NCBI GenBank assembly: GCA_000091205.1
Contig: AP006502.2
Direction: 5' to 3' (one strand)
Source of the DNA: Cyanidioschyzon merolae
Taxonomy: Eukaryota
DNA length: 64,000 nucleotides
The first letter of the stretch is position 1; the number at the start of each line of letters is the position of its first letter. A program made the position numbers and the translations under genes. Below are positions 1-59,579 of this stretch, in pieces. The notes beneath the pieces are model-generated. The model made no database searches and had not been told where the DNA came from. It saw only the letters and a list, made by a program, of their open reading frames with translations.

Positions 1-349
1 TCGAACTTCACGATTTGGCCCAGATGGAAAGCACTGGGATTCCTCGTGACACCGTTCCGAAAATCGATTTGAAAGGCTTGCGTCGTTCGTTGGTATGCAA
101 AGCCCAATAGAGGCCAGCAACAGATGCGTCTGTGTCAATGTTAAACGGCTGTAAACCAGCCTTCGCCATATGCTTGCTCCTGCACATAACCAATTGCACC
201 AATATTCGAAGAATGCGCACTTCACCGCTGTAGCGCCGAAATGCGACTGTACCAGTCATCCGATGTGCGAGTCGAGGCTTTGGGGTAGCTTCGCTCGTGC
301 GTGCAAAGGCATGCGTCGAGACGATAGAGTGCGTATAACTAGTATGCCC

Positions 350-843
350 CTACTCACAGGCGCTTCCCAGCCTTTTTGATTGGCTCCCTGCTATCGTCTT
401 CAGTTTTTCCCTGTGCACTTCCAGCCTGAGAGGCTGTCCCACACATTTGGCTCGTGTCAACTCCGGGTGTGTCGTGTTCAGCACCGCACATATCCTTATA
501 ATGAAGACGGCGTTGGCGTCCCGGTTCTCGAACTCTATGAGTTTCTTGCCGATGCCTGTACGCACCCGTGCGAGGAGTCCTGGAGCTCGCGCCCTGTATA
601 CCATTTGCTGCTCAGTCAGCGCAATGTACTTTTCCATCTCCGAAGTGCTCCGCCGGATTTCCTCCATCGCGACCTTCTGAAGTGCGCAGCCCAGATCATA
701 GTGTATACATACGATGTTCGGATCTCATCTATCCGTACCGTTACGAAATGATGTGCGCACTCCTCGTTCAATCGCGTAGATGGAGCGAGCATGCTCCCTT
801 TTTTGGACGCCCGGCGTCTTGCTCCATCGACGAGAGCATACAA
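350..843 (-). pseudogene. TnpB/Fanzor-like 3' fragment (TSY block + RuvC-III + conserved right end). Left arm of a head-to-head pair.
   Basis: ORFs 616..843 ('RIDEIRTSYVYT') and 350..667 ('IEFENRDANAVFIIRIC...KLKTIAGSQSK'). 3' block 'AAAAAGGCTGGGAAGCGCCTGTGAG' at about 330-360. Confidence 0.6.
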
Positions 844-1254
844 GGAGTGCGCATATCACGTCAACGCGGTACCGATAGACGACTTCCGAACATCGTACGT
901 ATATACTATGATCTGGGCTGCGCACTTCAGAAGGTCGCGATGGAGGAAATCCGGCGGAGCACTTCGGAGATAGAAAAGTACATTGCGCTGACTGAGCAGC
1001 AAATGAAGAGGAGGGCGAAAACTCGGGGACTGCTTGTATTGGTGAGTACAAGCGGCGGCAAGAAACGCATGGAGTTTGTGAACCGAGACTTTAATGCTGT
1101 TATCAATACCAGAAGATGTGCGGTACTGGAGAAGAGACCCCCAGCGTTGACACGAGCCAAATTTGTGGGAGAACCTCTCAAGGTCGAATTCTACGAGAAG
1201 AAGTTGAAAACAGTCGTAGGTGGCCGGTCCAAATAGAAGCGGAGGCGTCCGCAC
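791..1254 (+). pseudogene. TnpB/Fanzor-like 3' fragment. Right arm of the head-to-head pair.
   Basis: 'VPIDDFRTSYVYT' (791..973 frame), then 'EEIRRSTSEIEKYIALTEQQMKRRAKTRGLLVLVSTSGGKKRMEFVNRDFNAVINTRRCAVL' (568..1236 frame). A hairpin GCGGA-GGCG-TCCGC lies 2 nt after the TAG stop (1239-1252). Confidence 0.6.
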
Positions 1255-1925
1255 GTTGGTGTATAGACACGTCGAGTCTACGGCGGACGGACGCGCGCTC
1301 TTCGCGAAGGCCTCCGATCAGCACACGCAATATGCCCTGCGCGTAGGGCTTGCTTGAGGTGCAGACGTCGTTTCGATACGCTCTCGCTTTCGTGAACAGG
1401 CGTTCCTGGTGACGTTCATCTGATAACTAGGGTCTTGCACAATGCACAAACCGGCTTTCCTACACATAGGTTCACTCAGCTTGAACTCGGGCACCAGTGT
1501 GCGCTGGTTAAGGCCGTGTGCGAAAACTCACGCGAGCTGTTGCCGAGTGCTTGTGACGCAGAACCCAGCGTTCCGTGTGGCGCGCACCGGGACGAGCAGC
1601 TCTCACCACTGCAGGCTACGGACTACGAAATCGAGACTTTTCATGGCTTCTGGGCAGGTAGGTATCTTTACGCCGGTCGTCATTGTTGCGCGGGCAATTC
1701 TAGGGAAACAACGCTTCGAGAAAATTCGAGGTAGGGGCATTGCGCTCCACTCGCAGGCTATCACGAACTTTTGTAAGTTTGCAGGTGTCGACAATAAAGT
1801 TCGCCAAGGTCTCATTCGCATGGCGAAAGCGAATGGTAGCAAACTGGGTTTCCTGTCATGAAATGCTCTCTTCATAGCGGGATGAGCGACTCGGCTGCTG
1901 CGCGTGAAGCGCAGCTTGTGGATCC

Positions 1926-2762: not shown

Positions 2763-4425
2763 ACCTGCCGCCTCAATGACGCAGCTGTGCGTCGAGCGTT
2801 CCGGGTCATGCCGCTTGCATCTGCAGCGCCCTGTTCAGCAGAGTGCACTCAGCGGCAGGCCTGAGGGCGTTAGACTCGAATGCACTTCTGCGTCTTTCAT
2901 CGTCAATGCACCGATGCACCTGCCATTTACACAGTTAGAAGAACCTGCACGAGACGCAAGCGAGCGATTACAGTGGGACGCCAGGGCGGCTGGTCTCCAG
3001 CCACGTGAACAAGTTGCACCCACATCGCGGCGAGAAGACGAAGCGAACTATGCCTGGGAGCGACGCTATGAACGTAGCTGGGAGGCCATAGGTGTCAGCG
3101 ATGCTGGCGGGGGTATCTTCCGTCGAGATGCTCTTGATCAACAGCGCCAACGGCACCGTGACTTGGAACGTGTTTTGCAGGACAGCGCTGCTTCCGCTGC
3201 ACGTCGCCGCGTTGGTCGTGCGCTAGGCCTCATTCGCTTTCTGGTGCTGGCGCTGGACCTCTCCGCTGCGGTGCGCTCGCGCTCGCGATCCAGCTTAAGT
3301 AGTAGTAGCCAAGACCTGAAACCTTCCCGCTGGTCGGCAATTCTGTCGGGCGCTCAGTATTTTGTTCAGGACTTTTTCAGCGAGAACGCCGTATCCCAGC
3401 TGGCGATTGTTATCCTCCAGGACGGCATTGCCGCGCAGGTAAGCGAGATGTCGGGTTCTGTGCGTCTGCATATTGATGCGCTGCGCAGTCTTCAGCGAGG
3501 CACAAACAAATTTCTCCACGACGGAGACGGCGGCCAGACCTCTCTCCAGAACTGTCTAGAGCTGGGGCTCCGGATTCATGCATCTGTCCCGAGATTCGGC
3601 ACCAGAGAGATGCTGATTGTCTACGGAGGGTTATCCACATGTGATCCAGGTGATATACATAAGACTATCCAGAACTGTGTCGACGCAAGTATTCGGGTGA
3701 GCGTGATCGGCTTAGGTGCCGAAGTTTACATCTTGCGGGCTACAGCGGAGCGAACACAGGGCACCTATCGTGTACCCATGGATAATGATCACTTCCATCA
3801 GCTGCTGCGACAACAGGTGCCACCACCGCCACCACCGCCTCAGGCTTCACGTTCCACGAAACACCTGGAACCATCCGAGGCACCGTGGACGGCCATGCAG
3901 ATGGTCATGGGCTTCCCCCCGAAACTCGCTAGAGATCGCGTAGTTGTCGCCATCGATACACGAAAGGCGTGCCGCCTCGGATTCGAATGCCCACGATGCC
4001 GGCAATGGCTGTCCGAAGTCCCCGGTAACTGCATCCTTTGCGGGCTCACGCTTACCAGCGTACTCCACCTGGCTCGCTCGTATCATCACATCTTTCCAGC
4101 ACCGCGTTTCGAGGAGCGTGAAGAGCCTTCCTCTTCGCGTGCGAGCGCGCTCATGAGCGATGAGGAAGGTTTCAGCGTATCTCCATCTTCGGTGCCTGAG
4201 CGTATGCCGGATGCGGCCGCACCACCCGTGAAATGGCAATGCAGCGGCTGTTCCCGCACTTTATCGACAAAGGATGATCTGCAGCTGCAGTGCACTGGTA
4301 TATGTCGACAGCTTTTTTGCATTGACTGCGATCAGCTCGTCCACGAGCGATTGCATACGTGCCCGGCCTGTCTGGCGATGAGCCTGAATATGCGGCAGCG
4401 CAGCATCCCGCGAACGATCACCTGA
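2614..4425 (+). CDS. GTF2H2: General transcription factor TFIIH subunit p44 (SSL1/GTF2H2 family: vWA-like domain + C-terminal C4 zinc finger). The true start is probably an internal Met (about 2776 or 2914). The first ~100 codons of the ORF look like 5' read-through.
   Basis: Motifs typical of p44: 'ANYAWERRYERSWEAI', 'REMLIVYGGLSTCDPGDIHKTIQNCVDASIRVSVIGLGAEVYILRATAERTQGTYRV', 'MGFP', 'CPRCRQWL..CILCGLTL..LARSYHHIFP', 'QLFCIDCDQLVHERLHTCPAC'. Recognised from memory of the family; no search run. Confidence 0.85.
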   Translation: MGASKPALLGLARTAFHGVLELELARSSATLNIEPSEIALEHGNTRHKRTPAASMTQLCVERSGSCRLHLQRPVQQSALSGRPEGVRLECTSASFIVNAPMHLPFTQLEEPARDASERLQWDARAAGLQPREQVAPTSRREDEANYAWERRYERSWEAIGVSDAGGGIFRRDALDQQRQRHRDLERVLQDSAASAARRRVGRALGLIRFLVLALDLSAAVRSRSRSSLSSSSQDLKPSRWSAILSGAQYFVQDFFSENAVSQLAIVILQDGIAAQVSEMSGSVRLHIDALRSLQRGTNKFLHDGDGGQTSLQNCLELGLRIHASVPRFGTREMLIVYGGLSTCDPGDIHKTIQNCVDASIRVSVIGLGAEVYILRATAERTQGTYRVPMDNDHFHQLLRQQVPPPPPPPQASRSTKHLEPSEAPWTAMQMVMGFPPKLARDRVVVAIDTRKACRLGFECPRCRQWLSEVPGNCILCGLTLTSVLHLARSYHHIFPAPRFEEREEPSSSRASALMSDEEGFSVSPSSVPERMPDAAAPPVKWQCSGCSRTLSTKDDLQLQCTGICRQLFCIDCDQLVHERLHTCPACLAMSLNMRQRSIPRTIT

Positions 4426-5559: not shown

Positions 5560-6250
5560 ATTATGAAAACCGGAATAGGTGGTATGGATTCGGGTACGAA
5601 CGCGCTATGCGCGCTACGCCCGTGCGTAAGCTTGAATCCGAGTCCTGAGCGACTCGGTTTGCTCCGGTCTCCCCATGATTCATCGGTATTTCCATTCGAT
5701 TGTTTTCGATCTCCAAGTGCGTTGAATCAAATGCTTTTTCGTGGGTTGTAGCGGACGCGTTCGGAGTGCGTTCATTAGAAGAAATGAAAAATCAAAGGGA
5801 AAGGTACGGGCATGGAGGTCGCGGATGCTAGAGGGCGTTGATCGCCTGGTACCGAAAAGAAGAGGAAAAAATCCTCTGCTCGTCGACTGTCGCGCGATGA
5901 AGACCAAGTGACGAAGGCGAAGAAGAAGAGACAGAGAGGGAATCGTTTAGAAAACAGGTTTGTCTGACGGGATGATGGCGAGACTGTATTGGCACAGAGG
6001 GCACGAGTTCCAGCAATCCGTGCATTGGTGAGTTCCACTGGCGTCCATGCATGCAGGGTTCTCGTGAACGAAGACTTGAACGTCCGCATCCGTATCAGAC
6101 GATATCCGGTGCTGAAGAAAAGACCTGAGGAGACGATGCGATCCGAGTTCGTGGAGCAGCTTGTGACGCTTGTATTATGCAGGGAGAAATTGAAACCGAT
6201 AACAGTCTGCAGGTCGAAAAAGGCCGAGAAGCGCCTGCGAGGGGGTATCT
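5560..6250 (+). mobile_element. Short (~0.7 kb) internally deleted derivative of the TnpB-like family. It keeps 5'-end-like blocks and the RuvC-III remnant plus the 3' block.
   Basis: 'ctcgtgaacgaagacttgaacgtccgcatccgtatcagacg' (= FVNRDLNAAIHIRR, frameshifted). 3' block 'gaaattgaaaccgataacagtctgcaggtcgaaaaaggccgagaagcgcctgcgag'. Collinear with the 54040-54700 copy over its whole length. Carries the family-B-like 'ttttcgatct' and 'accggaat' blocks at its 5' side. Confidence 0.5.
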
Positions 6251-7698
6251 ATTTACCAACCACATTCGCACAGCGTTTTCCGTTTTATTCACGATATTCA
6301 TCGAACCTGCTTCACATGTACGGCCTCGAGATTCCAAGTGCACCAAATAGGGTTTACAGCTTCATACCGAGATCCTTGGTTCTCGGTCGTGTTTTTCGAG
6401 TGGCTTCTTCGAATCTCTGCATCTGGAATTCGTTGTGTTACTGGACTCAAGATGATTCGCGAAGCCCGCGAACAACCATTCGTAAAGCAACCGATATCAG
6501 TAAGCCATTGATCCATACAAACCTCCGGTCTGCTAATTTCCAAATGCAGAGCATTCTCGACTCATGCCTGCTTCGAGTTTTCGATGTTTATGGTTCAGGG
6601 CAACTCGTGAGCAAAGCGATTTGCGCCCTGGATTGACGACAAAAGCGGTCGACGTCATCCCGTGATGACTGGTTCACAAACTAGTATAGAGAGGTCACTG
6701 AAATTCTCCCGTCAAATAAACGATTCCGTTCGAAAGATGTATCCGCCTCTGTTTAGAGTATGGGCGCAACCGTTCTCAGATGCAGTTTGATATCTTTCAC
6801 GATGTATACTTCCCGTCGCACTTGTCTCTTGCGCTAGCAAGGAAACAGGTCCTGGACTCAGAATCGTAGTCGTCAGAGTGATCGCTTCCAGTGCAGACTG
6901 CGTCATTGTTTTGCGAGAAGAGCGCCTGGGCGGATTGAAGTTCCTTGCGTTGCTCTCCAGCCCAGATGCCCTTTCGGTGCTTGTTTCATCGTAAACAACA
7001 ACATGTTCCACGAAAACTCTGTCCTGTGGAACAGCGTGCGCTTGCTTACGCACCGGACAGGGTACTCGTCGAGTCGATGGATCGCAAGGAGTGCCTGGAC
7101 TTCAGGTACGGCACCGGGCCGCCGAAGCCGAGAAGGGCATCGACCGGAGCGTTCTGTCCTTGTTAAGAGTATGTACTCCGCGACGAAGCAAGTGTGCATG
7201 GGCCAAAGGTTTGCCTTCAGAAGAGCAGCAGGTATGGTGTACATTTTGGAATACCGGATCATAGCCGTGTCTCTCCGCTGCGAAGGGCGCATTGAACCTG
7301 CATACGCAGAAGATGAAAACGACAGGTAAAGCGTGGATCTCAAATAGCGGCTGCGGATGAAATGCGCCGACAGCTGCCGAATGCAGCTTGATCGGGACCC
7401 TAATGCTGCCGTCTGTATACCTCGGCTGCTTACAACGGCGCTCTACGAAATAGAGAGACCGGGATACTTCAGGCCGGAGATTAGAGAGAGCACAAAAGGA
7501 AGCAGCCATAGGAAACGCCCGCAATAGCTGGTGTTGATGAGACTGCACTGGGACCTAACCTATACTGTGTACGTCCGAGTTGGCGAACCGATTCCATTTC
7601 CGTCTGACATGGGTGTCGCGCATGCTTCACGCCGGCGATGAACATCTCCGACGTGCAATATCAGTACGTTTCAACAGCAGCTCCGAGTCGAGTACACT

Positions 7699-8994: not shown

Positions 8995-9375
8995 AGAAGC
9001 ACAAAACTACCGAGCTTTCCGCACGCGTTTCGCGTTCTACAAAGCGGCTTCGGAACGAGTGATCCAACACCGCAAAAGTTGCTGTGTTATGCGTTGACGA
9101 AACCGAAGCAGGGTCGCAAGGCAGGGCCCAAAAGGCGCGACTCTATGGACAACGCTTCTAGGGTCCTCGAAAGGCACTAGAGGCGGTACACGCGCTCAAG
9201 CTGTTTCAACGTGTCCGGTACAGCACCGTGTCGTGCGTCAAGCGAGCACAGCACCGGCTACTAGACGGCATCGCGAACGCGGGTGGCGCGCAAAGCTGTT
9301 TCGCGATGCGCGGCGGCGGGACGACGGCGATCGCTGGGCCATTCAGCCGCGCAGGGACACAGGCACCAGCGCATT

Positions 9376-9680
9376 TTTTCATGGACAAAACGTTAACTGG
9401 GGCCAGCGCTCTCCGATTATGCGCATTTTTCTTTTCTTACTTTTTTTTTGTGTTTATTTTTCAGTGCACGGTAAAGTATTCATCAACTCCTACCTCCAAG
9501 TTACATTACCCAGACTTTTTTCTCGGATACGCTGGTCGTTTCATACGTCCTATCGTGTGAGCCTAGTACCTGCCGAAAGCGACCGCTATGGCGCCTATAG
9601 CGCCGGTGCGGTCGCTGCACGGAGACAGAACGGCGTTGCCGTAGCACACACAGAGGGCGTCGGCTCGAGGAGCAGCGCCT
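9376..9680 (+). repeat. Family C dispersed repeat (about 300 bp), copy 1.
   Basis: 'catggacaaaacgttaactggggccagcgctctccgattatgcgcatttttcttttcttactttttttttgtgtttatttttcag...' and 'cacggagacagaacggcgttgccgtagcacacacagagggcgtcggctcgag'. Confidence 0.6.
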
Positions 9681-10527
9681 GGACGCCGCGCACAAAGGTG
9701 CGCGGATCTCCACCAAATGAGCGCTCGGCATGCAACATGACGCAACTGCCTTGAACGAATGCCTCCACGGATCGATGAAAATCGTGTTATCTCTGCTTGA
9801 CGTGTACCATGGGCGTTGCACTCTGAGCGTTGCGGGATCGATCAAGCGTGTAGCGTTACGGGGAATACGGGTCCAGGGTTCAGATACGCAAAAACGTCTG
9901 GATGAGCGCATCGATTTCATTTCCGATTACCGATGGCAATCTGGTTCAGTACATCGACCATGTACCATAAAAGCAGGGTGCAATCGGGGTAGCGCTTCGT
10001 TGTGTGCGTCACGGCAATTCAATAGCTTTGCCAAGTCTTAGAGAAATATCTTGGGGTTGACGCGTTCGAGTCGCTTCGCCGAAGAGATGCGAGGCACCAC
10101 GGGTGCCGGCGTTAGAGCGCACCGCTTCGCCTGCTCCGAAACGGACCCGCATCGTCGCCTGGCCGTATTGAGGATGCCAATTCCCGGTACTGATGATACG
10201 GTCGAAGATGCTGGGGATTGCGTGACGGGCGCCTGCTACCTGTCGCATGTGCGGCCAAGTCTCTGTTGCACGCGGAGGCACCGCAGGAGCAGAGAGACTT
10301 CTCCAGTTCTGGAACTCGTCGCCCAGAGCGATGAACGCGCCTGCGAGGCTGCCGAATACCCAGTCCAATTTCGACTTGCGGAACGTACGCTGACTCCTCT
10401 TATTGTATGGATGCCGTTTCGTGAACAGCGGTTTATGCCAGCCGAGCGTTAGATTGGAATGGGATACTGCACTGCACGCGCTGGCCCTGCCTTTCGATTT
10501 TTTTCCCCGGCATTTTCCTAGATATAC

Positions 10528-11810
10528 GGTCTAGACACTCAAAGTGCAACAATCAGGGCTTGGGAATTCATGCGCAGTTTCCGGATTCCCGGTCCGCGTT
10601 ACTGCGTGCCACTTTCGACGCGTTGCCCCTGTAACTCGATACGTCACCGGGATCGAGATGCTTCTCGACGCCGCCAAACAAAGGTTTGTAAAATAGCCGA
10701 TTTTATGAACCAATTTGTAGGCACAAGCCTCTACCGCTATCGCGTTCCTTGTGTATAGCATGCGCAAATCATGCATGCTTCATGTTTTCGATCTTTCTGT
10801 TTCAAGGCAACCCGTGGGCACAGCAATGCTCGCCACTGGACTGGCGCGGCATGGAGCCCGACGTCGCTCCTTGACGACGTGTTCACACGCTCACGCCCAA
10901 GCCTCATCGTGCTTCTCGTATCAAATGATCGAATCCTTTCGAAAGACAAATCCTTGTGTCCCTGTGGTCATCCGCGAGACAGGGAATTCGACAGCTGCAT
11001 CGTACGTTACACGGGGATTCGCGCCCAGATGCACTCGCCTCTTCTGGTTGCATGGAATAAAGTCCCTGACTATAGTCGTCGCAGCGATCGCCTCTGGTGC
11101 AGACTGGATCACCGCTTCGCTGTAGAACAGCGTGGACGGATCGAAATCACTCGACTGGTTCTCCTATGGGCGTTATCATTCGCTCGATTGTTCCACCAAG
11201 GCCAATATCGCATTCCACGAATCCCTTCTCAAACGGGACAGCGTATGCTTGCTTTTGCACCATACAGCGCACTCGCAAAGGGAATCGCCCAGAAGAAGCC
11301 CGTCATCGTACGGTACGGCATTGGGCATGCAAACAAAGAATGGATTCGACGAGCGCCTTCTACGTCAGTCGCGGACATGCATCGAGCGCTGAAGTAAGCC
11401 TTCGCATGCCACCGAGCGGCGCTCGGTCCAGGAAGAGCTGCGGCAGACGCATATGCGAGCGTCTGATCAGAGTCCAGTCTCAGCGCTGCGGAAGACACAC
11501 CGAAGCTGTGTACACAGAAGACGAACATGGCGAACGACGTGCGGACCGCAACTTGCCCCTACGCGTGGGACGCGTTACCAAGAGCGGGAAGCGGCGAAGT
11601 CGGAACTTGAACGTTGCCATCGACATCTCTCGACTGCTTACACGGGAGCTTCAAGGACAAGACAGACCGGCATATGTACATTCGGAGCTAAGAGAGCGGC
11701 AAAGGAAGCAGTCGCAGAAAGAGCGTTCAAAAGCGAATGTCCATGACAGAGAGAAAACCGCGATTTTAACCTGTACGTTCGTGTCTGGGGACCTATTCTC
11801 TTCCATTACG
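10528..11810 (+). mobile_element. Family B dispersed element (about 1.25 kb), copy B1. Degenerate ORFs.
   Basis: 5' blocks 'ttcgacgcgttgcccctg...caccgggatcgagatgc' and 'ttttcgatctttctgtttcaaggcaacccgtggg'. Internal 'AQKKPVIVRYGIG'. 3' tail 'aaaggaagcagtcgcagaaag...ctattctcttccattacgac'. Confidence 0.6.
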
Positions 11811-13228: not shown

Positions 13229-13834
13229 ACCTGGATGATGACGTATAGCTGCGGAAGCGTTCGTAGGTGCAGCGTCATCTCCTGTACAGCGATCGTCGAG
13301 GGCGTGCGCGCTCCACCAGAGCGCGCTGTAAGCGGCGCTTCACTCGAGACGGTCGATTCGGGCGATGAGCGGCGCTTGCGCGTTCCACTGGTGCCCGCGA
13401 CAGATCGCAGACGGCTTTCTTTTTCGAGCTTGTGTCGTATCCGGACTACACATTTGAGGTGCTGGCTATGATAAGATTGCTCTTGATGACGCAAGTAATC
13501 GCAGGCATCCTGTTTGTGCTCATGGGTACACTGCAGCTCGTAGGCTGGGTTCGGGCGAAGCATCCGCAGTATCTGAAGGAATTCAGAACGCTATATCCCC
13601 GGGCGAGGAAATGCATGTTTCCTTTCATTTGATGAAAGCACGGAAGGCTCAGGAAATTTGTTTGCACGCCAATGGGCACATCCTGACTTGGATGTGCGAG
13701 GCCGGTGCGCATGTGACTTTTCGTCACTTTTGGATGATGGTGGATTCGATGATCGTTGCAACCGGTGCATCGTGGTCGTGCCGATGCTGCCGCCGCACAT
13801 GCCGTGGAGCGTGCTCAGAGTCGTGATGATGCTC

Positions 13835-14045
13835 GATATTCGAGCTAGAAAAGCGCACTCGGATTGTTTTCCCAGATTACCGTAGCGGCGACTTGTCATC
13901 ATCCTGCATCTGAACGTTTTGGGCATCGTCATGATGCTCGATATTCAATCGACAAAAGTGCTCTCGGATTGTTTTCCCAGAATACCGCAGCGGCGACTTG
14001 TCATCATCCTGAATCTGAATGTTTCGGGTACGTCTTAAGTTTACG
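13835..14045. repeat. Tandem duplication, 2 x about 105 bp, about 90% identical.
   Basis: 'tgatgctcgatattc...ggattgttttcccaga(t/a)taccg(t/c)agcggcgacttgtcatcatcctg(c/a)atctgaa(c/t)gtt' appears twice. Confidence 0.8.
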
Positions 14046-14246
14046 CACTAGGAAACCGTGGCTTCCCGTGCGGCTTTGTCAAGCACTGTTCGCGACCAGC
14101 ATGCCATCACCAGAGCACCTGGCGCCGGCCGGAGCCTTCAGCTTCTTTTACCGATCGTTTGATAGCGTCAGTCAAGATGGATCGGTTCTGGACTTCAGCT
14201 CCATCACGAGTGTTTTAGACAAAACGCCATCAGTATCAGATGATGT

Positions 14247-14440
14247 ATGGTGATGGAGGTGCGACCTGCGGAGCTGGTGCGATCCAACTTTGGGCGGCAG
14301 CCTGCGAGGCTAGAGATATGCAAGGAGAGGCTGAAACCGATCGCAGTCGGCAGGTCAAAACAGGCGGGGAGGCGTCTGCAATTGGGTATCCCTTTACCCT
14401 ACATGCGCATAGGACATTTCTCGGTTTCATTGAGTATAAA
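14247..14440 (+). pseudogene. TnpB-like 3'-terminal remnant (tail only).
   Basis: 'RLEICKERLKPIAVGRSKQAGRRLQLG' with 'gaggctgaaaccgatcgcagtcggcaggtcaaaacaggcggggaggcgtctgcaa'. Abuts an inverted family-B copy. Confidence 0.45.
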
Positions 14441-14469: not shown

Positions 14470-15700
14470 GAGTATGCACTTAATAAAGTGCCTCCTCCAA
14501 ACCTCATCAACACCAGCCTTCTAAGGCATTTCTTTGACCGCTTCTTTTACGCTTTCGTTTTTGCGGCTTTCAATACGCCAGTCTCTCCTTTTACTCTAGC
14601 TTCTTCTTCAACTGACACAGGATGCGGATCGCCGTACTCAAGTCATGATTTCGCTGCATGGGTTGTTGCCGATGTAGTCCAGGCACAGGCGCAAGTTGCG
14701 ATCTACGCTTCGCTTGCCGTTTTCATCTACTGCATATATGGTATGCGTGCGCTCTTCGCGGCTGTGACGCTTGACTGTGATCAGGTGTTCCCGTGCGCCA
14801 ACAACATCTCCACTTCCGATAACCGCTCTATCGCACGTGAACGCTCGCCTCATCGCTCGGTATATGCTCTTGACGGGTAGAGAGGTTCCCGTCGGTACCC
14901 GCCTCCGTTTCCGCGCTCTTTGTCGTACCCTGCGATCACGGGCTTCTTCGAGACGATTCTTGTGACAAGTACCTTGTACGCGGCACACGCACATACAGGC
15001 TGTTCTATTCGACAGAGAATTCGTGGAATACGAGATTGTCCATAACAAAACAAGAATCGGAAGGAATACCTAGGCTGAAGAACAAGCCGAGAAATCTCGT
15101 TCAGTCAACGTTCCCTGTATACAAAAAAGTAACGGACTCTTTCCTTGAAGCGATCGTTGCGATGACGCGGACCCATGTTCCAGGCTGTATTCCTTGCTGA
15201 CAGAAGAGACGAGAGTATCTCAGAAAATGTCACGTGCGACGCATCGCGCTGCTGTCGAATGAGGTTTCGTCAATGGCCACGAAGGCAAAATAGTGTGTTT
15301 TTCGATTCGAATGTATGATTTGACTTGAGCGATTCAATCAAGTTTCGGGGTTAGCTCGTGAACCAATCGGCAAGAGTCGACGTCATGGCACATCGCTCAT
15401 CGCCATTTCCGTGTCGCGAATTGCTGCGCCCATGAGTCGCAAGGCAAAAAGGTCTAAAACATGAAAAACGCGTGCTTTGTGCACACTACAGCTGAAGAAA
15501 CGAGAAGCGTGGGGCTCGCACGCATGAATTTTCTCATGTTACCGATTTTTTTCCGAACCACAGTTCGATCATTCCGCGAATGACCTCGTTTCCAATGATG
15601 TTTCGAATTCCAGCGGCAAAGCGTCGAAGGAGCTACGCCCAAAACCACGATCGAGTATCCACAACCCACGTCCGACTTGGTACGTACATGTTGCTTGCAA
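14470..15700 (-). mobile_element. Family B copy B8, inverted. It directly abuts the TnpB-like remnant at 14247-14440.
   Basis: Minus-strand ORFs 14638..15048 and 14850..15053 are homologous to B1 ORFs ('KKPVIAGYD', 'HTIYAVDENGKRSVDRNL'). The reverse-complement of the block-A motif lies at about 15600-15640. Confidence 0.5.
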
Positions 15701-19666: not shown

Positions 19667-19896
19667 CCTGGGAAGCGCCTTGGTGCGCGAAGCGGCAACA
19701 AATGGTACTCGAAGCCGTCAACAAGTCTCAGAGGATGCTCGGGCACCTCCTCAACAAATAGTGACGAGGTAACGATCAAAAGTCGGGTGTGGCGGGTATG
19801 CAATCGCTATGATGCTGCACAGCACGCGTCAAAGAACCAGCTGTCGAAAAACCGAAACCTACCCGACGACGATACGCGTTACTGCTCTCTTTATGA

Positions 19897-20070
19897 GCAC
19901 TTGTCACCGGTGAGCGCTGGCACCAAAGTCCTCTGCACAGCGCGCTCCTCACAGCACCAGCTTGTCGCGTTCTATCCTCTAGCACAAGAGCTTCCCGTCC
20001 GAGCACTTGTCACCGGCGAGCGCTGGCACCAAAGTCCTCTGCCCAGCGCGCTCCTCACAGCACCAGCTTA
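19897..20070. repeat. Direct repeat, 2 x about 66 bp separated by ~43 bp. Lies in the bidirectional region between the AGC kinase (-) and the DUG-fusion gene (+).
   Basis: 'cacttgtcaccgg(t/c)gagcgctggcaccaaagtcctctgc(a/c)cagcgcgctcctcacagcaccagctt' occurs twice. Confidence 0.8.
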
Positions 20071-20528
20071 CCGCGTACCGTATACCGTAGGTGTCGTGCT
20101 TTGACGTCAGTACGCTCAGCAGCTCCCGATTTTATCAGGTCCGGTCTGATCCAGGAAAACGAAAAGACTCTCCACCGACACGTGAAAAGGACGCTATGTC
20201 CAAAGCACCGGGTAACGCTCGCGGACGTCGAACACAAGAACGCCACCGGCCTGAGAGGGCGAGTTTCGAACCCGCACCACCACCGTTTGGCTTCGCCCCC
20301 TGGAGCGCAGCGCTCAACGGTGACGTCGCACCGCAGTCGGTATGCAGGGGTCGCGTCTTTACGCAGGGGACTTCGTTTAGCGACACTTGGAAAGGTACAC
20401 TGCTACACAGTGAAGAACCGTGCTTGCACTTGTGGCAGCGAGTCTCGTGACTGTGACCAGAAACTCTATCATCGAGCGATTTTGCATTAGCTGCGCACCG
20501 CTGCCTCTCAACCGCACCGTACTTCAAC

Positions 20529-25354: not shown

Positions 25355-25650
25355 CATGGATAAAACGTTTTCTTAGACCAGCGTTTTCCGATTGTGTGCT
25401 TTTTCTTTTCCTACTTTTTTCGTGTTTTTTCAGTGTGCTTTGAAATATCCATCAAACCCGCTACCTCCGAGTTACATTACCTATACTTCTTCTCGGATAT
25501 TTTCGTCGTTTCATGTGTTCTATCGCACACCTTATGCCTGCCCTAATCATCCGCAATAGCGTCTTTACCTTTGGTCCAGTTGCATCACGGAGACAGAACG
25601 GCGTTGCCGTACCACAGAGGGCGTCGGCTCGAGCTCGGTTGGGTGCAGGT
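25355..25650 (+). repeat. Family C copy 2, immediately upstream of ORC4.
   Basis: The same blocks in the same order ('...cacggagacagaacggcgttgccgtaccacagagggcgtcggctcgag'). Confidence 0.6.
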
Positions 25651-27693: not shown

Positions 27694-28955
27694 TGTAGAT
27701 GTACAGCGTCCGCATTCAGCGTGATGCAACAAAGGTGTATGGATTCATGTGCAGTTTTAGGGTTCTGGATCTCGTTTTCTGGGTGACGCCTTCGACGCCC
27801 TGCCGCTGGAATTCGTTACGCCACCGGAATCGAGAAATCTGGGACGCTCTTGAACAACGGTTCTTACATTAAGTGATATTTTTTTATCCAATGCATACAT
27901 GGATGCAACCACTCGTCTTCTATGCTTACGCGTAGTGCGCTAACATTACGCATGTTCCAAGTTTACGGTCTCTTTGTTTCAAGGCAACTCGTGGACGCAG
28001 TAATACGAACCGCTGGATTGGCGATAACGCAAAGCCGACATCAACCCGTGACGAATGATTCACGAACTGGTGCCGAAAGTTTGCCGCGCTGCTCACGTCA
28101 AATAATCGGTTCCTTTCGAAAGTCAATTCGCCTCGCTTTGTAACCGCTGATGAGCTTGCATGCGATACCGGCATGATCGCTGTCGGGTGATGTGCTCCTA
28201 GCGTCTACCGTCTCTGTTGCTTGTATGAAAAGAAGGGTCATGGACACGGTCTTGGTACGCCGCAGCGATCGTTCCCAGTGCAGCGTTTGTCACCGCTTTT
28301 GCGCGAAGGAAGCGACAGCGGATCGACATTTCTCGGCTTGTTCTATGGCCTGGATTTTGCTTTCACCGATTGTTTCATTATGGACAACGTCGCGTGCCGC
28401 AAATCTTTGACCGAATGGAAAAGCGTTCGCTTGCGCGTGCACCGGAGAGCGTGCTTGCTGAAGCCACTGTTCAGAAAGAGCCTGTGATCATAGTGTACGG
28501 TGCCGGACTCGAAAACGGACGGGGACATCAACACTAGCCTTCTGTGCCCGTCAAAGGCATGTAGAGTCCGATGGTGCAAGCGTCCACGAGCCACAGACCG
28601 ACGTTTAGAATTGGCGTTGTGGTGGACGTAGACGAGCGTTTGATCATTGTCAAGTGCCGCTGCTGCGAATCGCGTACTGAGGCAGTACGTGTATGAAATG
28701 AAAAAGGCAAACGGAGCGTAAATCGGATTTCCCGCCTGTGCATCGAATGCGCCAACAACTACCGGAAGTAGCGAAATCGAGCCTTGAACCCTGCCACCAA
28801 CACCCTTCTACTAATGACCACAGAGGCCGGGGGAACAGACGCTACCAGTGCATTGAAAGCGCGAGATAAACAAGAGGAACAAGAATCAATCGCAGAGCAA
28901 GCCCGAAAAGACTCGTGTTGATGATCGTGTGAAGAGCCACAAACTTTAGTGCTTA
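27694..28955 (+). mobile_element. Family B copy B2.
   Basis: 5' 'tttgtagatgtacagcgtccgcattcag'. Blocks 'ttcgacgccctgccgctggaattcgttacgccaccggaatcgaga' and 'gtttcaaggcaactcgtggacgc'. 3' 'aaactttagtgctt...cttgttctattctggtatcaca'. Confidence 0.6.
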
Positions 28956-44985: not shown

Positions 44986-45245
44986 ACGTTTATATGAACT
45001 CGCCGAGAATCGCCTTGATTCCAGTGACGGGACGCTTTCCAGCTGCAAAGAATCGAAACAGCGACTTTTAAAAGATAACCGATAATTAAAAAGTTCCAAA
45101 CGGATGTGTAAACCCCTCATGTTGGAATTCGAATATCGAAAGTGCATATCTGACATCTCGTTCAGAAAAGCATCGAGAGACACCACCGCCTCTCGAAAGT
45201 CGAACGACGTCGCCGGCAGTGTACAGTAGTGGCAAGTGACCCGCC

Positions 45246-47383
45246 CTAGACGAAACGTCTCCGACTGACGTGCAGACGCCTGCCCGTCTTTTTGGACCGG
45301 CCATCTACTACTGCTTCCATCTTCTTCTCATATAATTCAACTTTGAGAGGTTGTCCAATAAAGTTTTCTCTTGTCAGCTCTGGAGGTCTCTTCTCCAGCA
45401 CCGCACATCTCCTTATATTGATTGCGGCGATAAAATCTCGGTTCACAAACTCCATACGTTTCTTGCCATCATTCCTTGTACTCACCAGTGCAAGCAATCC
45501 TCGAACATTCTCCCTCCTTTCCATTTCCTCTTCCGTCAGCGGCCCGTACTTTTTTATGTTCCCAGGGCTCTATTGGCAATTTTCTATCTCCACTCTCTGA
45601 AGTACGCACCCCAGTTCATGGTGTGTATACGAGGTTCGAAACTCATCAACAGGTATCGTGGCGAAACGCCTTGCGCATTCCCTGTACGTTCTTGTCGTTG
45701 GAGTTGGCGTACAACCTTTTTTAGGCGCCAAGCACCCTGCCCCGTACGCTACTACGAGCCTTTGAGTCTTGTCCTCTTTGACGGCACTCAACTAATTGAA
45801 AAAGTTGGCAAACGCCCGCTGCCTCCCACCGTATAGATTCATTCGCAAACGAGCCCACCAGGGCTTGGTATACTCCTCCCACAGCGCATCCCAATGGGCA
45901 ACACGAACTTGCATGAATTTCAGAAAAGCTTCAAAGTCCGCTCCGCGGCTCGTCACCTCGCTCAAAGCTTCCAGGTGATCCTTCATTCCTGCATTCCGTA
46001 TCTCAATTTTCTTCCTCGCATTCGTTATACCCGATTCTCGATAATATATCGCTCTCGAGAGCCTCATCAGACGCATGTCTTTCTGACGTAAGTTGCCGTC
46101 AGCACCATCTTCCGCACGCTTCGGTGCTGCGATGGTTATGATATTCGTATTCCCGGGGCCCGCGCCAACGACAAGGTCGTTATCCTGCACTTTCTGTGTA
46201 TCAGGGCCCGCCTTCTTGTTTTCTTCATGCTTCGCCGCGCCAACCATAAAGGCGTTATCCTGCACCTCCTGCATCACAGGATCCGCTTCCTTCCCATCTT
46301 CATCCTTCGTCACGTCAACGACAAGGTCGTTATCCGGCATCATCTGCGTCGCATGATCCTCCTCTTTGTTTTCTTCATGCTTCGCCGCGTCAACGACAAG
46401 GTCGTCATCCTGCACTTCCAGTGTGGCAGGTTCGGCGTCCTTCTCATCTTCATGCTTCGCCGAGGGCGGGACCAAACGATCTGCCTTCAATCGCCGATTG
46501 TGTGCACACAAGTCTACTCCATCGGTTTCGATCATCCCAGTGAATACATTTTGTTTGCTCTTTTTGAGACGTTTGAAATCGAAGATATTCTTCCAGTGCG
46601 TCTCCCGGTTTTCGCCAGTGAAGTCCTCCCTGCGAACATTGAACTCCGGACAGATCTCCCTCATGATGCCATGAGGGACGCCAGAGTCGATAGTCACAAA
46701 ATGTGACTTGGTGTTGCATAATGGAACAACGTCGAAGCGCTTCCCCATTAGGAGAGCCTTCCGTCTCTCCCATTCTTCATTTTTTCCTCACTCAGCTTTA
46801 TTTCCGCCTTGCGTTCGAGCTCTCGGTCCAGAAACGCGAACTAACATAGGATGAGGCGATAGTATCTTTCCTTACCTTTTTTCAACTTTGATATCTTGTC
46901 TGTTGGATTCACCAGCCCCATGACTGCACGGTCTTCTTGTATAAGCGCACGGATTACAGAAGCTTCATTCGTGCTCTCTTTTGACGCCTTCTTGTCGACA
47001 AATTCGACCTCATCTTCATGCTTGCGATCGTTCGTGATGCCATTGATAATCGCCCATTTTCCTTTGCAAGAGATGCCCGAGTAGAGTGCAAACACGGCGC
47101 GTATCATGAAACGTTCGAGGTTCATTGTCAAATAGTTCTTCAGATTCGTGAGGTACTTCATCGCCCCATAGTCGTAAATATCCCGGTCACACTTGTATCG
47201 AGTACCGTTGAAGCTGTAAAAGGGATGTTTTTCGTGCAAGGCATGCACTAGCACATTTTCCCCCTGCGCTTCCGCTGTACCAAGTATCAGGTGAGGAATA
47301 AAGGTCTTATCGAAAAACACGTCCGGAATCTCGACCGTTTCCATGTACGTCACGTCTTTGTAGATCTCCCTCGCCAAATGCAT
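45246..47383 (-). mobile_element. Near full-length TnpB/Fanzor-like (OMEGA-family RuvC nuclease) element. The coding region (~690 codons) is disrupted by one frameshift (about 46841/46748) and two in-frame TAG codons. Best treated as a recently inactivated copy, or an intron-containing one.
   Basis: Minus-strand reading 47383->45246 gives, in order: RuvC-I-like '[11 protein letters not shown]'; an acidic tandem-repeat insertion; RuvC-II-like 'LSEVTSRGA'; 'ALWEEY...LRMNLYGG...RLVVAYGAG'; 'IPVDEFRTSYTHHELGC' (TnpB 'VdpxyTSqxCsxCG' position, zinc finger degenerate); RuvC-III 'KKRMEFVNRDFIAAINI'. The whole region is AT-richer than the flanking host genes. Confidence 0.6.
46100..46450 (-). repeat. 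Coding tandem repeat (about 75-78 bp / 25 aa, about 4 units) inside the Fanzor-like ORF.
   Basis: Protein repeats '[21 protein letters not shown]', '[59 protein letters not shown]'. The + strand ORF track shows the same periodicity (HKGVILH... / NDKVVI...). Confidence 0.7.
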
Positions 47384-48829
47384 CAGTCCCGACGACGCCT
47401 TGACGATACTCTTAGAGTACGAGTCGACACGTTATTTTTATAGCATCTCGCAACTTTTCCCTGTAGGGATCCTTGATATGTTCAAGAAAACAGGTCTTCA
47501 CCACCATCTCGTCGTAGAGTTGTCTTCCCCGCGCAGCCTTCGACTTAGGGCATCCCCCTTTCGGTTCTTCTCCTCTTCCATTTCTTCTGGACTCGGCACT
47601 GTTCTTTGTTTATTTTTATGGCAGCTGGAGACCCTGAGCCTCCAAGATCGTGGACTTGCTTTTTCATAACTTTCCTTTTTTTAGTTTTTTTTTGAAAAAG
47701 AACACTCTTTGAACGCTTCTGTTATATTCTGCGAATAAACACTCGAGTGTTTTTACTTGAGGTTTGAAACACGACTGAGATGAAACAATATATTTTGTTA
47801 CGATTCCAATGCAAATACAAGTCTTACGTTAGAACAAAACGCTACTGATTACGATCGCGTTTCCCTTCAACGGCGACATGCGCGTCGCGTCAGTTGACTG
47901 CCTGATCTCCTTGGTGCGCTCACCGAGCGGGATGCAAACTAGTCACAAACTTTTTATCAAAGATCAACTATCTTAAAAGCCCCACACACCACGCCCGCCT
48001 AAGTGGTCCAATTTTTCCGGAGAAGCTCTGAAAGTGGGTTAACACGAATGTTTGGGCGACGAGGAAGGAAGCCCACTCCAGGGACCTTGACCGCAACGAA
48101 CGGAGGGGCAGAGGCAGTAGCAGAGAATGATGACGAGAATTCGAAGTAGTTATCCGCTGCTCTCGAAACAAGGCTGCAGGTTCGGGCGCAAATCCTGGAT
48201 CCATCCTTGAATTCGGGCTCAGTTTTATGGTCTATCTTGGTTTCTACCTCAACTTTGGAAACAATCTCGGCGGATACTTTGGAAGACGGCTGACAGCATG
48301 TTCGCCGTCGAAGCTGACATAAGCGACTTGCCCGCCTATGTGTTTGGGGAGCGGATACGAAACCGCTGAAAGGGTGGTTTGTAGACTGTTCCCAATGGTT
48401 TAGGGTGGCTTCACGCGTCCGGCAAGATAAAGGTCGCATTTGAATCGACCTTGACTAATGTACTTTTGATTCTATGCTAGCGCTGCGGCAGATACGCAAT
48501 GAACGACTGGAATGCAGGAGGCAATGGTGGCTTGTGCGCTCACATACCCCGTGGAGGGTGCATCTAAATCGACCTTCTAGTCGGAAGGTCCAGCGAATCG
48601 GATACGCACACTGGCACATTGCGCTTTCTGCGCTTACCCACTGTGGTGGGTGTCAAGCACAAACCCGCATTGCCAACCGACAACAACGCATTCCATGCAT
48701 GATCACGAAGGAGAGAGGCGGCTCCCAGAATGTATCCTAACAGCCAAGTTTCTCCAGCGTGTCGTGCAGCGAAGGCAAGCTTGCATCCGCAGACTGTCCA
48801 AGCACAAACTGACGACGAGATCCGATTCT

Positions 48830-54039: not shown

Positions 54040-54700
54040 TGCAGAAAATGTGCCATCCCGCGCAATCTCGCACCGGATCGCGCTCGATCGTTGAAGCATG
54101 CTGGTGATTCACGTCAATGATGTGCCACATTCAGGTGCATCTCATTGTATGCTTTTTCGCAACTTTTAGCAGATACGGTCAAAGTGCGTCCACTTGAAGC
54201 AATAAAAAATCCAAGGGAAAGGTATGGACATGCAATTCGAGGATCCTGGAGGCTCGGTGTCGCCGAGTACCGGAGAAGAAACGGAAAAAACGTCTTCTCG
54301 CTGATCATCGAGCGAAGAAGAGCAAGCGAAGAAGAAACGGGAGATAGGCGAGAAAAAATGCGTTTGCCCGACTGAACGATAATGAGACGCTAGTGGCACT
54401 GGGGACATGAGTCCGAGCAATACTTGCAATGGTGCGTTCCACCAGAGGCAACAAACGCATGGAATTCGTGAACCGAGACTTGAATGCCGCCATCCATATC
54501 AGACGAGGAGTGGTGCTGAAGACGAGACTCGCACAGCTGATGTAATCCAGCTCTGGGGCGCAGCTTCTCAGGCTCGAAGTGTGCCCGGATCAATCGAATC
54601 CGATCGCAGGCGACCAGTCAGAAAAGGCTGGGAGTCGTTTGTAAGTGGAAAAGTGTTTACCCTCCGTGATCGTGGGACGTTTTCCGTTCTACTGGCGATA
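54040..54700 (+). mobile_element. Second short deletion derivative of the TnpB-like family. It starts immediately after the (CCTG)n microsatellite.
   Basis: 'GAFHQRQQTHGIREPRLECRHPYQTRS' overlaps the frame encoding 'NKRMEFVNRDLNAAIHIRRGVVLKTRL' (54440-54540). 3' block '...aatcgaatccgatcgcaggcgaccagtcagaaaaggctgggagtcg'. Homologous to 5700-6250 throughout. Confidence 0.5.
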
Positions 54701-57007: not shown

Positions 57008-57714
57008 ATAACACCCGGAAATCCATGGACGATGCGCGAGCCGAGATTCTCAACGAGAGCGCAGCTCGAGGGGTCGCCGCCTGCGCTCGAGCGAAGCGCT
57101 CAAAAAGCTGTACGCAAATACGCAGTTCATGAGGCGTTCTTTAGTGGGCCTTGATGCGGACTGTCAAGGTATTCGGTTCCCTATTTGTTTCGTGTGCAGG
57201 GCCAATGTACATGATTTTTTCTAAAACGACTGTTGCTCGCTTTTCTGGTCAGAGCTTCCATATGCTGCTTACACTGGAGAAGCGAGCACTTTTGTAACCA
57301 GGTTCAACTGGAGCGACCCGCTCGCCGTGAACCTGGAAATATCTCCAGCTTTAGCCTAGTACTTTTCGGCGGTTGAATGGCATGGTTTCTGTATACTTTC
57401 GCTGAAGTTAAAGAGGCGGACTGCTTACCCATGCTTTGTCTGCAATAACAAGTTGGATCTTTTCAGGAGTTTCGCGCTGGAATCCATCTGCTTCTTTCCG
57501 TATTCGGCATGCCGCCACATAACCGGAGGCAACGTCATGTCGACCGTTTTAGAGTTTGTGTAAAAGAAGTCGCATGAGATCGCAACCATGGATGTGGTTC
57601 CATTGGAACCGGCAGAGAAGATACCGAGGTGTCTCAGCGACGCGCATACGATCCACACGTCGATATCGTCGGTGAAACAAACAATGCCCCACGACCATGG
57701 AGGGTCAATATATG

Positions 57715-57830
57715 AACATTCACAGGCGCTTCCCAGCCTTTTTCACGGTTGGCCTGCTATCGGTTTCAATTTCTCACTGCGCACTTGGAGCTTGTGAGGC
57801 TGTACCACGAAGTTAGATCGCGTCGACTCC
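57715..57830 (-). ncRNA. Candidate right-end / omega-RNA-like scaffold of the TnpB-like family. Example copy; equivalents at about 325-440 (-), 1150-1262 (+), 6150-6250 (+), 14300-14400 (+), 45205-45330 (-).
   Basis: A conserved ~60-nt block overlaps the last codons and stop of every copy. A stem-loop differs in sequence between subfamilies but stays paired. Flanks diverge 10-25 nt downstream. Confidence 0.3.
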
Positions 57831-58075
57831 TCGAGTCTCGTCTTCAGCACCCTACATCTCCTGATTTTGATGGAAATGTTGAAGTCTCGGTTTTCGAACT
57901 CCAAGCTTGTCTTGCCGCTGGTTCTACTTGCCAATGCATGGTGTCCTCGAATACGTGCCCTCGGTGCCATTTGCTGTTCTGTCAGCTCTCCGTGCTTTTC
58001 TATCGTCGAAGCGCTCCGCTGCCTTCTCTTCTATCCCAAACCTCTGAAGTGTAAACCACAGCTCATCCCGTATTT
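57715..58075 (-). pseudogene. TnpB/Fanzor-like 3' fragment (about 360 bp), 5'-truncated.
   Basis: ORF 57743..57970 'LEFENRDFNISIKIRRCRVLKTRLEESTRSNFVVQPHKLQVRSEKLKPIAGQP*'. 3' block 'ccgtgaaaaaggctgggaagcgcctgtga' immediately after the TGA stop. Homology to the 350 copy ends about 10 nt later. Confidence 0.6.
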
Positions 58076-59579
58076 GTTTCTAAAATGAACCCACTTCCTA
58101 GTGCCCTTTGGTGTGGACCTTCCCTGAGGGGGACACGCTTGCGGCACAAAGGCGGAATAGACACCGTCCTGGTCGCGTGCCGAAAGCTTCTGTGAGTCGC
58201 CCAGTGGCGCGATCATTACGTTTCAGGATACAGAACGCTCCTTCGGTGACGTTGAACCACGGAGAGTATGGAGCAATGGAAAGCAACTCTACCTCCCAAT
58301 AGCATCGGCAAAAGCTTGCACGCAATAAAAATGGTGAAATGGCGCGTTGTCGTCTGGAAAGACGTCTCCAGACGTGGGGAGAAGGGTCTTCAATGATTCG
58401 GCAAAGTGGGTGTTGTTGTATGAGCCTTCCCTACGAGCGAAACTGAGGCCGTCAAATATATCCACTGCAGCTGGAGCCGATGATGATGCCTTAGCTCTTT
58501 TCGAGTTCGATCGTACATACAACGGACCCCCTGCTCCGCGAGTACCCATATACGCCCCGACCGTATCGCTCGGACGAAGTCTCACTGACTGGCAAAACAA
58601 ACTGACGTCACTTTGCTTCATATCGATCGTGACATTCCAGGAATTCTCCAGTCGTAATTTCGGTGGAAGATAGCCGTGATTGAACTAGGACGCTTTTGTG
58701 CCAGGCTCCTAGAGTTTACAGGTCCACACGGACAAGCGGTTGAATAACAGAGACGCCCATGATGGCTTCTATACTCGCTTCAGCTTTCCATAAGCTCATC
58801 AACGGTTCGTTTTCTATCATTGACCTCAATCGCGCTTTGAGAATATCGGTTTCTGGCGCGGAACGCATAGCCTTCTTCTTGTCGGTGTTCCTCGAGTATC
58901 TGATTACTATGGTATGACGGACCTGAAGCAGGAATGCAGTCCTCCTTCCATTGTCCAGTAAAGAGCAAATATCCAATAGGCAAGTGCTCTACGATCTATA
59001 CGATATACTGCTTTGTGATTTCGATCTCCTGCTGGAGACTGCGAAAAAGCATGTGATGCCATGCAGCGGGGCGACGGAACAGAGTTGAGTTGGAAGACTA
59101 TTCGATGGACGGGCGTTCAATCTCCAAAGGCTTTTTGCTGCATATCCCAGCAGCTAGCTCATAGACTTGGATCTGTATCGAAGTTTTGGAGGGTTTCACG
59201 GAGAACGCTTGAACGCTGCAGGCACAGAGCGGGCATAGAACTCCACGAGAGAGACTATCGAGACGAGGTGTGATAAATCGCGTAGCGCCGCTCTTCCACA
59301 ACATCGGCAATATCATTTTGCAACACAGCGAACGGCAATTGAGGCAGTTTTTTGTGTCAGTCGTGTATCTTCCATGTAAAGCCTTTGCAGGATATCGGTT
59401 TGCCATGAGTCGCTAGCACGGGGCGTTGTCCACGACGGCCGAGCTTGACTTGAGGCGCGCCGGCTCTCGTTTGCTGGCCCTTGATTAATACTGAAGCGCG
59501 GTCAACTCGCAATCATCGTGCAAGCATAAAATCCACCCGTGAATTGATAGCGCTGTTCCTGAATTGAGATATTTTCCGA

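Follow-up and report, generated by a model that had tools for sequence, protein, structure and literature searches.

Fanzor1 relics in a 64-kb stretch of eukaryotic nuclear DNA and a probable omega-RNA scaffold region at their 3′ ends

Introduction

In the TnpB superfamily, the scaffold of the guide RNA is encoded by the stretch that begins at the 3′ end of the ORF and reaches the right end of the transposon (Saito 2023, PMC10432273; Jiang 2023, PMC10530073). [quoted passage not shown] Fanzor guide RNAs (fRNAs) derive from the 3′ non-coding region and abut or overlap the right end (Jiang 2023, PMC10530073). As for the carrier, Fanzor1c associates with Mariner/Tc1 (Jiang 2023, PMC10530073), and Fanzor1 has been described on Mariner/Tc1 transposons (Bao & Jurka 2013, PMC3627910).

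The DNA analysed here, the window, is a 64-kb stretch of eukaryotic nuclear DNA (54% GC) with long ORFs for Ssl1/TFIIH, WD40, protein kinase and patatin. An initial annotation reported seven copies of a TnpB-like gene that end in one common block, at positions 1150-1262 among others, and read this block as the right end of an IS200/IS605-type element with an omega-RNA scaffold. Its observations were confirmed in part and its interpretation was right in spirit; the family label, the boundary and the weight placed on a hairpin in the block were wrong. The block is probably the 3′ end of dead Fanzor1 copies, with the stretch from stop codon to right end a relic omega-RNA scaffold region; the system is of a known kind and survives in the window as pseudogenes.

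Seven pseudogene copies and their subfamilies

When the last 55 residues encoded by the 1069-1233 copy served as query, tblastn matched 45455-45291 (-; 76% identity), 538-374 (-; 56%), 57904-57752 (-; 47%), 6061-6219 (+; 40%) and 54459-54623 (+; 36%), and blastn added a copy at 14229-14380 (+). The common 3′ block is thus carried by seven copies within the window, as had been annotated. Searching the window with full-length relatives returned no fragment that is without the C-terminal end. The copies are as follows:

818..1285, + strand: c1254p, A-type Fanzor1 pseudogene fragment of about the last 138 codons, truncated at both ends; contains 1150-1262
291..789, - strand: c350m, Fanzor fragment with a B-like tail; right end at ~291
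45181..47908, - strand: c45246m, near full-length A-type Fanzor element core of 2.7 kb
5731..6296, + strand: c6250p, B-type Fanzor 3′ fragment plus 3′ UTR; terminus ...CACGA, then TA
14225..14437, + strand: c14400p, B-type 3′ fragment; terminus ...GAGTA, then TA
54149..54700, + strand: c54650p, B-type 3′ fragment; terminus ...GGCGA, then TA
57666..58030, - strand: c57715m, B-type 3′ fragment; terminus ...GACGA, then TA

Two subfamilies are present: the copies at 1254 and 45246 are A-type, those at 57715, 6250, 54650 and 14400 are B-type, and the 350 copy combines a B-like 3′ tail with a body nearest to that of 1254. All copies in the window are pseudogenes, which makes activity here unlikely, and c45246m is the sole long one among the seven (~2.7 kb).

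The 350 and 1254 copies form a head-to-head palindrome, whose arms (374-789 and 818-1233) are 78% complementary and separated by a 28-nt spacer. The two bodies are each other's nearest among the copies and their 3′ tails differ, one being B-like and the other A-like. An ORF at 568-1236 runs through the centre of this palindrome, between the two gene fragments, and was rejected as an artefact. The 1150-1262 interval comprises the last 28 ORF codons (...AKFVGEPLKVEFYEKKLKTVVGGRSK, then stop), the TAG at 1234-1236, which is a mutated AAG, and an inverted repeat at 1239-1252.

A Fanzor1 family filed under DUF8286

The conceptual protein of c45246m has 178 homologues at E <= 1e-3, all metagenomic, and homologues are tagged PF26935 (DUF8286) in Pfam. 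The family profile covers 1800 representative clusters among 1.8 billion proteins, and related metagenome contigs contain at least 394 matches. Pfam searches with the window ORFs and with the relatives gave no match above threshold, and a PDB sequence search returned nothing relevant; sub-threshold Cas12f1-like TNB matches recur in several relatives at the correct position.

The fold was modelled with AlphaFold2 for an intact relative, P0117, which is 46% identical to the c45246m conceptual protein (alignment A4, 129 sequences; pLDDT 92.5, pTM 0.89). The model matches SpuFz (9ceu_P) with E 6.5e-18 and TM 0.66/0.72 over 674 aligned columns and also matches PpFz and GtFz over the full length; Cas12f structures match at E ~1e-4 only. 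It has the WED/REC/RuvC/NUC fold of solved Fanzors, and the RuvC D-E-D triad is near-invariant in the 129 relatives: D398 (GxDPG), E569 (VDEFRT) and D636 (NRDxNAAxNI). Judged by this modelled full-length fold and by the triad, the family is Fanzor1, the eukaryotic homologue of TnpB, and the clade corresponds to DUF8286. A Pfam family of unknown function with at least 1800 sequence clusters is thereby assigned to Fanzor1 by fold, and the annotated TnpB-like gene indeed belongs to a nuclease of the TnpB superfamily. The host is eukaryotic and the gene a multicopy transposon passenger, with 7 copies in 64 kb.

The triad is incomplete in c45246m, which has two in-frame stops and a replaced first Asp (RuvC-I; VVGAGPGNT, GAGPGN), so that even the longest copy of the window is dead. 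Its ORF also contains in-frame 75-nt tandem repeats (46163-46459, - strand) in an acidic KHEE..-rich linker ahead of the RuvC-I motif, and the repeat number of this linker varies among relatives (P0003 versus P0004). A separate peculiarity concerns codon 27 after MEFVNRDF (loci L002-L080; window equivalent 45377-45375), the middle base of which is hypervariable: counts among 49 non-redundant copies include TAG (12), TGG (9), TTG (8), CTG (7) and TCG (6), so an in-frame TAG is seen repeatedly where the C-terminal frame is open apart from it.

The common block is coding sequence

The common block is the last ~20 codons of the Fanzor gene. Its conservation is ordinary, as 39 related copies keep it no better than the rest of the gene: the gene's last 840 nt have an identity of 0.84-0.92, the block with its hairpin 0.86-0.89 and the 3′ UTR 0.76-0.83. 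The block looks special only because the 5′ part is missing from all fragments.

The hairpin that had been highlighted in the block takes two forms in the A-type copies of the window:

1239..1252, + strand: GCGGA-GGCG-TCCGC in c1254p; copy-specific, out of register with the other copies
45274..45289, - strand: AGACG-GGCAGG-CGTCT in c45246m; within the ORF, encodes K-T-G-R-R-L

This hairpin was said to lie at or just after the stop codon. It is inside the ORF of intact relatives, where the reading frame continues through it (...GGRSKKTGRRLHVSWRRFV, then stop); many homologues end in ...GGRSKK[T/A]GRRLHVSWRRFV and a stop, and the TAG at 1234-1236 is the pseudogene mutation of AAG already mentioned. 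Nor does the pairing hold in all copies in the way that was proposed. In register, AG[A/G]C-N8-G[C/U]CU is present in 6 of the 7 window copies. The 1254 stem is offset from the others, its 5′ arm by 4 columns and its 3′ arm by 2; since it occupies other columns, it cannot count as the same helix with covarying pairs.

Covariation had been taken as evidence for selection on structure, and here the aligned 3′ ends give the hairpin no statistical support. The 4-bp stem of the seven window copies contains one covarying pair (GC in 3, AU in 2, GU in 2), which gives a covariation score that is equalled or exceeded in 134 of 500 shuffles. In 50 A-type copies (alignment A5), the hairpin is 77.7% paired with one double change; 11/50 copies have pair 2 disrupted, at least 8 of these through AAA in place of the AAG codon, and 28/50 have pair 5 disrupted. 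Two mutually exclusive alternatives, CCGGUC/GACUGG and AGGCGUCU/AGACGUUU, fit just as well (81%; 79-83% paired), also without covariation. RNAalifold did not pick the annotated hairpin in the 50 A-type copies, and in the B-type copies it found only the annotated 4-bp stem, at ~0 kcal/mol and with a covariation penalty; its input was decayed copies, poor material for structure inference. The helix may or may not belong to the scaffold, as an upstream part or as its first helix; nothing in the data marks it out.

Where the elements end

Right ends were mapped with 79 related loci from metagenome contigs, reduced to 49 non-redundant 3′ ends. Identity to the consensus is ~0.9 in the ORF and 0.73-0.86 over the 60-75 nt past the intact stop, a stretch in which A-type copies stay at about 0.8-0.9, and beyond it identity collapses to 0.3-0.4 (background); coverage by other copies stops just as sharply. 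The A-type tail consists, in order, of TAG, GGCG..CGCC (H2), ACTACTGTACAC and a long hairpin ending ...GGCGTT(GAT)GGTG. The c45246m copy follows this consensus to 45181, and c1254p loses it at 1285; c1254p is without a true right end, so the 1150-1262 interval does not qualify as one.

The B-type copies, four in the window and three more in the related loci, are alignable for 60-75 nt past TGA, reaching ...CGA or ...AGTA followed by TA at 57666, 6296, 54700 and 14437, and the 350 and 57715 copies are still alignable downstream, the former to ~291. Right-end termini take the form ...GAGTA in DDE_3-linked elements (e.g. L081) or ...GGCGTTGATGGTG. A sharp edge therefore exists in both subfamilies, as had been claimed, but it had been placed too far in: homology was said to stop 10-25 nt past the hairpin and continues for 40-65 nt beyond the ends given then (to 45181, 57666, 6296, 54700, 14437 and ~291); over all copies the boundary had been misplaced by 31-65 nt.

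The initial annotation had suggested a check of whether the 16-20 nt just outside each boundary match other genomic sites. For the 20 nt outside each right end, no second match was found with up to 3 mismatches in the window and 80 related loci, a result that is uninformative, as expected. In one related locus (L058, 631-773), the terminal ~50 nt of the A-type element (ACTACTGTACAC...GGCGTT) are tandemly duplicated.

A Tc1/mariner-type carrier in intact relatives

In 5/7 fetched lineages (L081-L084, L087, L089, L091, L092), a DDE_3 gene (PF13358) lies directly upstream of the Fanzor gene, and in one of them the transposase has a faint Tc3 HTH match. These DDE_3-linked intact relatives are 56-64% identical to P0117. 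The L081 element is bounded by terminal inverted repeats (TIRs) of 30 nt (143-172 / 3754-3783), and the flanks of independent copies with the same protein diverge immediately after ...CATGAGTA and TA (...GAGTA, then TA). Intact DUF8286 members thus ride in Tc1/mariner-type elements. A remnant of the same type of gene lies in the window:

58179..58976, - strand: pseudogene of a DDE_3 (Tc1/mariner-IS630) transposase with several stops, adjoining c57715m on its upstream side; tblastn E 2e-22

Transposase and Fanzor follow each other here as in the intact relatives, and with the DDE_3 pseudogene upstream of it, c57715m looks like what an internal deletion has left of a transposase-Fanzor element. 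Right ends of the B-type are similar to the TIR tip of the relatives and finish in TA; a search for a left TIR of c57715m found none. For A-type elements, no TIR, transposase or TA was found, and neither HUH nor Y1 TnpA genes were seen among the neighbours of the intact relatives or in the window.

The 5′ side of A-type elements is a mosaic: at one and the same core boundary, several kinds of repeated module adjoin the core, including one that is found both ways round. A module of 300-650 nt that begins with TTTTTTC(A/G)(A)TGGACAAAACG occurs in the window (9374-9650, 25402-25633, 48848-49135) and in related loci (L027, 2275-2946; L009, 2337-2986, inverted). In related contigs it adjoins the A-type Fanzor core in either orientation and may be a promoter module, a separate element or a preferred target.

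A further repeat family of ~1.2 kb has nine copies in the window, three of them 97% identical: 6316-7524, 10522-11730, 27783-28280, 30794-31912, 38134-38839, 59677-60777 and 62467-63494 (+), and 44048-44974 and 14661-15645 (-). This repeat follows three of the Fanzor right ends at a distance of 20-220 nt; the ORFs in it (200-224 aa) have no Pfam match, and weak DDE_3 similarity (E 0.003) was seen in the family at 15286-15011. Unrelated tandem arrays lie at 35230-35909 (85 nt x ~8), 32645-32848 (an exact 102-nt duplication), 13821-14028 (103-105 nt x 2) and 19895-20076 (106 nt x 2).

Folding of the 3′ non-coding tail

The better-supported structures lie downstream of the annotated hairpin. Intact relatives have a 3′ UTR of 170-225 nt between stop and right end, for which a consensus structure was derived from six lineages. 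Compensatory changes occur in 5 of its 19 predicted pairs and span lineages at 62-64% protein identity. Helix P1 appears as CCGGCG/CGUCGG, CGGUG/CACCG or CAGUG/CACUG, with GC exchanged for AU and UA for CG, and P3 shows swaps between GC and AU and among UA, AU and CG; one helix of the consensus pairs the TIR tip with an internal UAUAUAC. P2 is a hairpin in the individual folds (AAGGG..CCCUU, AAGGGG..CCCCUU, GGAAAA..UUUUCC); its length is strongly variable among the six lineages, and the A-type has no clear 5′ arm of P1.

Two hairpins were located in the tail of c45246m:

45231..45245, - strand: hairpin H2, GGCGGG-TCA-CTTGCC, directly 3′ of the stop TAG at 45246-45248
45181..45221, - strand: terminal G·U-rich hairpin, its base coinciding with the right edge of A-type homology

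H2 is the only helix that RNAalifold recovered in 50 A-type copies. It is 94% paired, and its pair 74-81 is CG in 20 copies and GC in 16, a change that probably goes back to a single evolutionary event. Apart from this pair, the A family shows weak covariation, and shuffle controls overstate significance given the relatedness of the copies. The A-type order H2/ACTGTA/GGCGTCG may be equivalent to P2/ACTGTA/GGCGTCGG of the relatives (L081), a correspondence proposed from short motifs.

The terminal hairpin of A-type elements has 15-19 bp with ~6 G·U pairs, and its base is the element edge. It exists in two variants that differ in register and both pair, one sub-variant carrying a clean swap of G-C for U-A. 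In 26 V1-type copies the inner 10 bp are 89.6% paired, with covariation not clearly above shuffles (28/500). The A-type consensus tails are more stable than shuffled sequences (z -3.23, 0/200, and z -2.11), while the individual window copies (z +0.57 to -1.46) and the c1254p 3′ region (z -0.03) fold no better than shuffles. Sense and antisense strands differ markedly, with -55.2 versus -37.0 and -46.9 versus -30.0 kcal/mol; a sense strand that is 10-18 kcal/mol more stable favours RNA. Rfam gave no match, whether the window was searched at the gathering threshold or the 3′ regions at E <= 1. A covarying 3′ UTR that is absent from Rfam is a good candidate for the omega-RNA of this clade, and the window copies retain a shortened form of the tail (65-85 nt) with the covarying hairpin and the long G·U-rich terminal hairpin.

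Origin of the relics and alternative explanations

The results can be combined into a model. An intact element would measure ~3.6 kb and carry a DDE_3 Tc1/mariner transposase followed by the nuclease gene between 30-nt inverted repeats, inserting at TA. Deletion derivatives that move by cut-and-paste would have to keep their ends, so that the surviving piece would adjoin the right end; such retention would account for the statement that every copy ends with the same block. This logic is demonstrated only for the B-type copy c57715m, and the A-type right end is unlike a Tc1/mariner TIR. In the tail, which starts near the stop codon and reaches the right end, the sense strand is predicted to fold into the conserved helices; transcription of this tail in an active element would yield the omega-RNA (fRNA) scaffold, and the adjoining 15-20 nt of flank would act as guide, by analogy with other Fanzors. 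The window copies retain the shortened tail and have no intact nuclease, which makes them relics. Since the layout is like that of experimentally shown Fanzors, the stop-to-right-end stretch is read as a relic scaffold region. Alongside the observed family, fold, transposon context, boundaries and covariation in relatives, we infer that the omega-RNA of these elements would be transcribed, bound and used for guiding.

The common block may also reflect nothing beyond shared ancestry and coding constraint: recently amplified copies would share a basic C-terminal tail (GGRSKK[T/A]GRRL...), and the hairpins, both in the block and in the short UTRs of the window copies, would be incidental and play no part as RNA. 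Much of what was found in the block itself fits this explanation, namely the in-frame position of the hairpin in intact relatives, the flat identity along the gene, covariation that does not exceed shuffles, AAG-codon changes (AAA in at least 8 copies) that break the hairpin in 11/50, rival pairings that fit as well, and fold z-scores near 0 in the window copies. It leaves unexplained what lies downstream, where both subfamilies keep non-coding DNA 3′ of the stop up to a sharp edge, H2 has a compensatory change between CG and GC, intact relatives have compensatory UTR pairs across lineages at 62-64% protein identity, and sense and antisense strands are strongly asymmetric. As an account of the whole we consider it unlikely. 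The omega-RNA right end proposed by the initial annotation is plausible in so far as the gene is of the TnpB superfamily and its relatives show compensatory 3′ UTR pairs; the hairpin and the boundary cited for it do not.

Terminal structures could instead act at the level of DNA as signals for transposition, be it a TIR bound by the transposase or a single-stranded hairpin of the kind found in IS200/IS605 or at the 3′ end of Helitrons. The right end of the relatives is the 30-nt TIR of a DDE_3 element, so that the conserved tail certainly includes a DNA signal, and the A-type right edge, where no TIR was found, is the base of a long palindrome-like hairpin. That this is the whole function seems distinctly improbable to us: the ~6 G·U pairs in 19 bp of the A-type hairpin and an opposite strand 10-18 kcal/mol less stable favour a sense-strand RNA, the covarying P1 and P3 helices of the relatives are internal to the TIR, and no HUH or Y1 gene was seen. 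It is important to point out that a DNA signal and an omega-RNA are not mutually exclusive. The case for a genuine IS200/IS605 element (TnpA and TnpB, with hairpins at left and right end) consists of the distant TnpB/Cas12f-like signature and of a hairpin near the 3′ end. The host is eukaryotic, the nearest structures are Fanzor1, with Cas12f at E ~1e-4 only, and the linked transposase is a DDE_3 with 30-nt TIRs (L081) and TA, with no Y1 TnpA; in the A-type a hairpin is present at the right end only. The IS200/IS605 architecture of the initial annotation is refuted by these features, and we assign it next to no probability.

The omega-RNA scaffold remains the preferred reading of the tail. A-type elements have a ~2.7-kb Fanzor-only core without TIR, transposase or TA, hundreds of copies in related genomes, interchangeable 5′ modules and a right edge at the base of the 15-19-bp G·U-rich hairpin, traits that raise the very doubtful idea of movement by a mechanism other than Tc1/mariner cut-and-paste. 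Such a mechanism may be homing by break repair driven by Fanzor and omega-RNA, or a hairpin-dependent single-strand process; if A-type elements did move otherwise, their mobility would depend above all on the terminal hairpin as cis element. For the window itself the outcome is mostly corrective: its copies are relics, the boundary had been misplaced and the highlighted hairpin is not the evidence.

Comparison with known systems

Among described systems, Fanzor1 (SpuFz1, GtFz1; 8GKH, 9CEU) shares with the family studied here the full-length fold, the D-E-D RuvC triad and the life of a multicopy eukaryotic transposon passenger; a scaffold that overlaps the last codons, as in GtFz1, may be a further likeness. 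The family differs from the solved Fanzors in that sequence identity is only 11-16%, without a sequence-level PDB match, and the clade is filed as DUF8286 in Pfam. Also unlike the Fanzor1 systems, the window copies are pseudogenes, c45246m being without the RuvC-I Asp, and the omega-RNA is a predicted one.

Fanzor1 borne by Mariner/Tc1 is resembled by the relatives, with their upstream DDE_3, 30-nt TIRs and TA, and by the DDE_3 remnant beside c57715m in the window (58976-58179). The A-type, which is the majority family in related metagenome contigs, differs in having no DDE_3 or other transposase, TIR or TA and in ending with a long hairpin. ISDra2, an IS200/IS605 TnpB system, belongs to the same superfamily and likewise has its scaffold at the 3′ end of the gene and takes its guide from the flank; its prokaryotic host, Y1 TnpA and subterminal single-stranded DNA hairpins without TIR or target-site duplication set it apart from the Fanzor1 elements described here.
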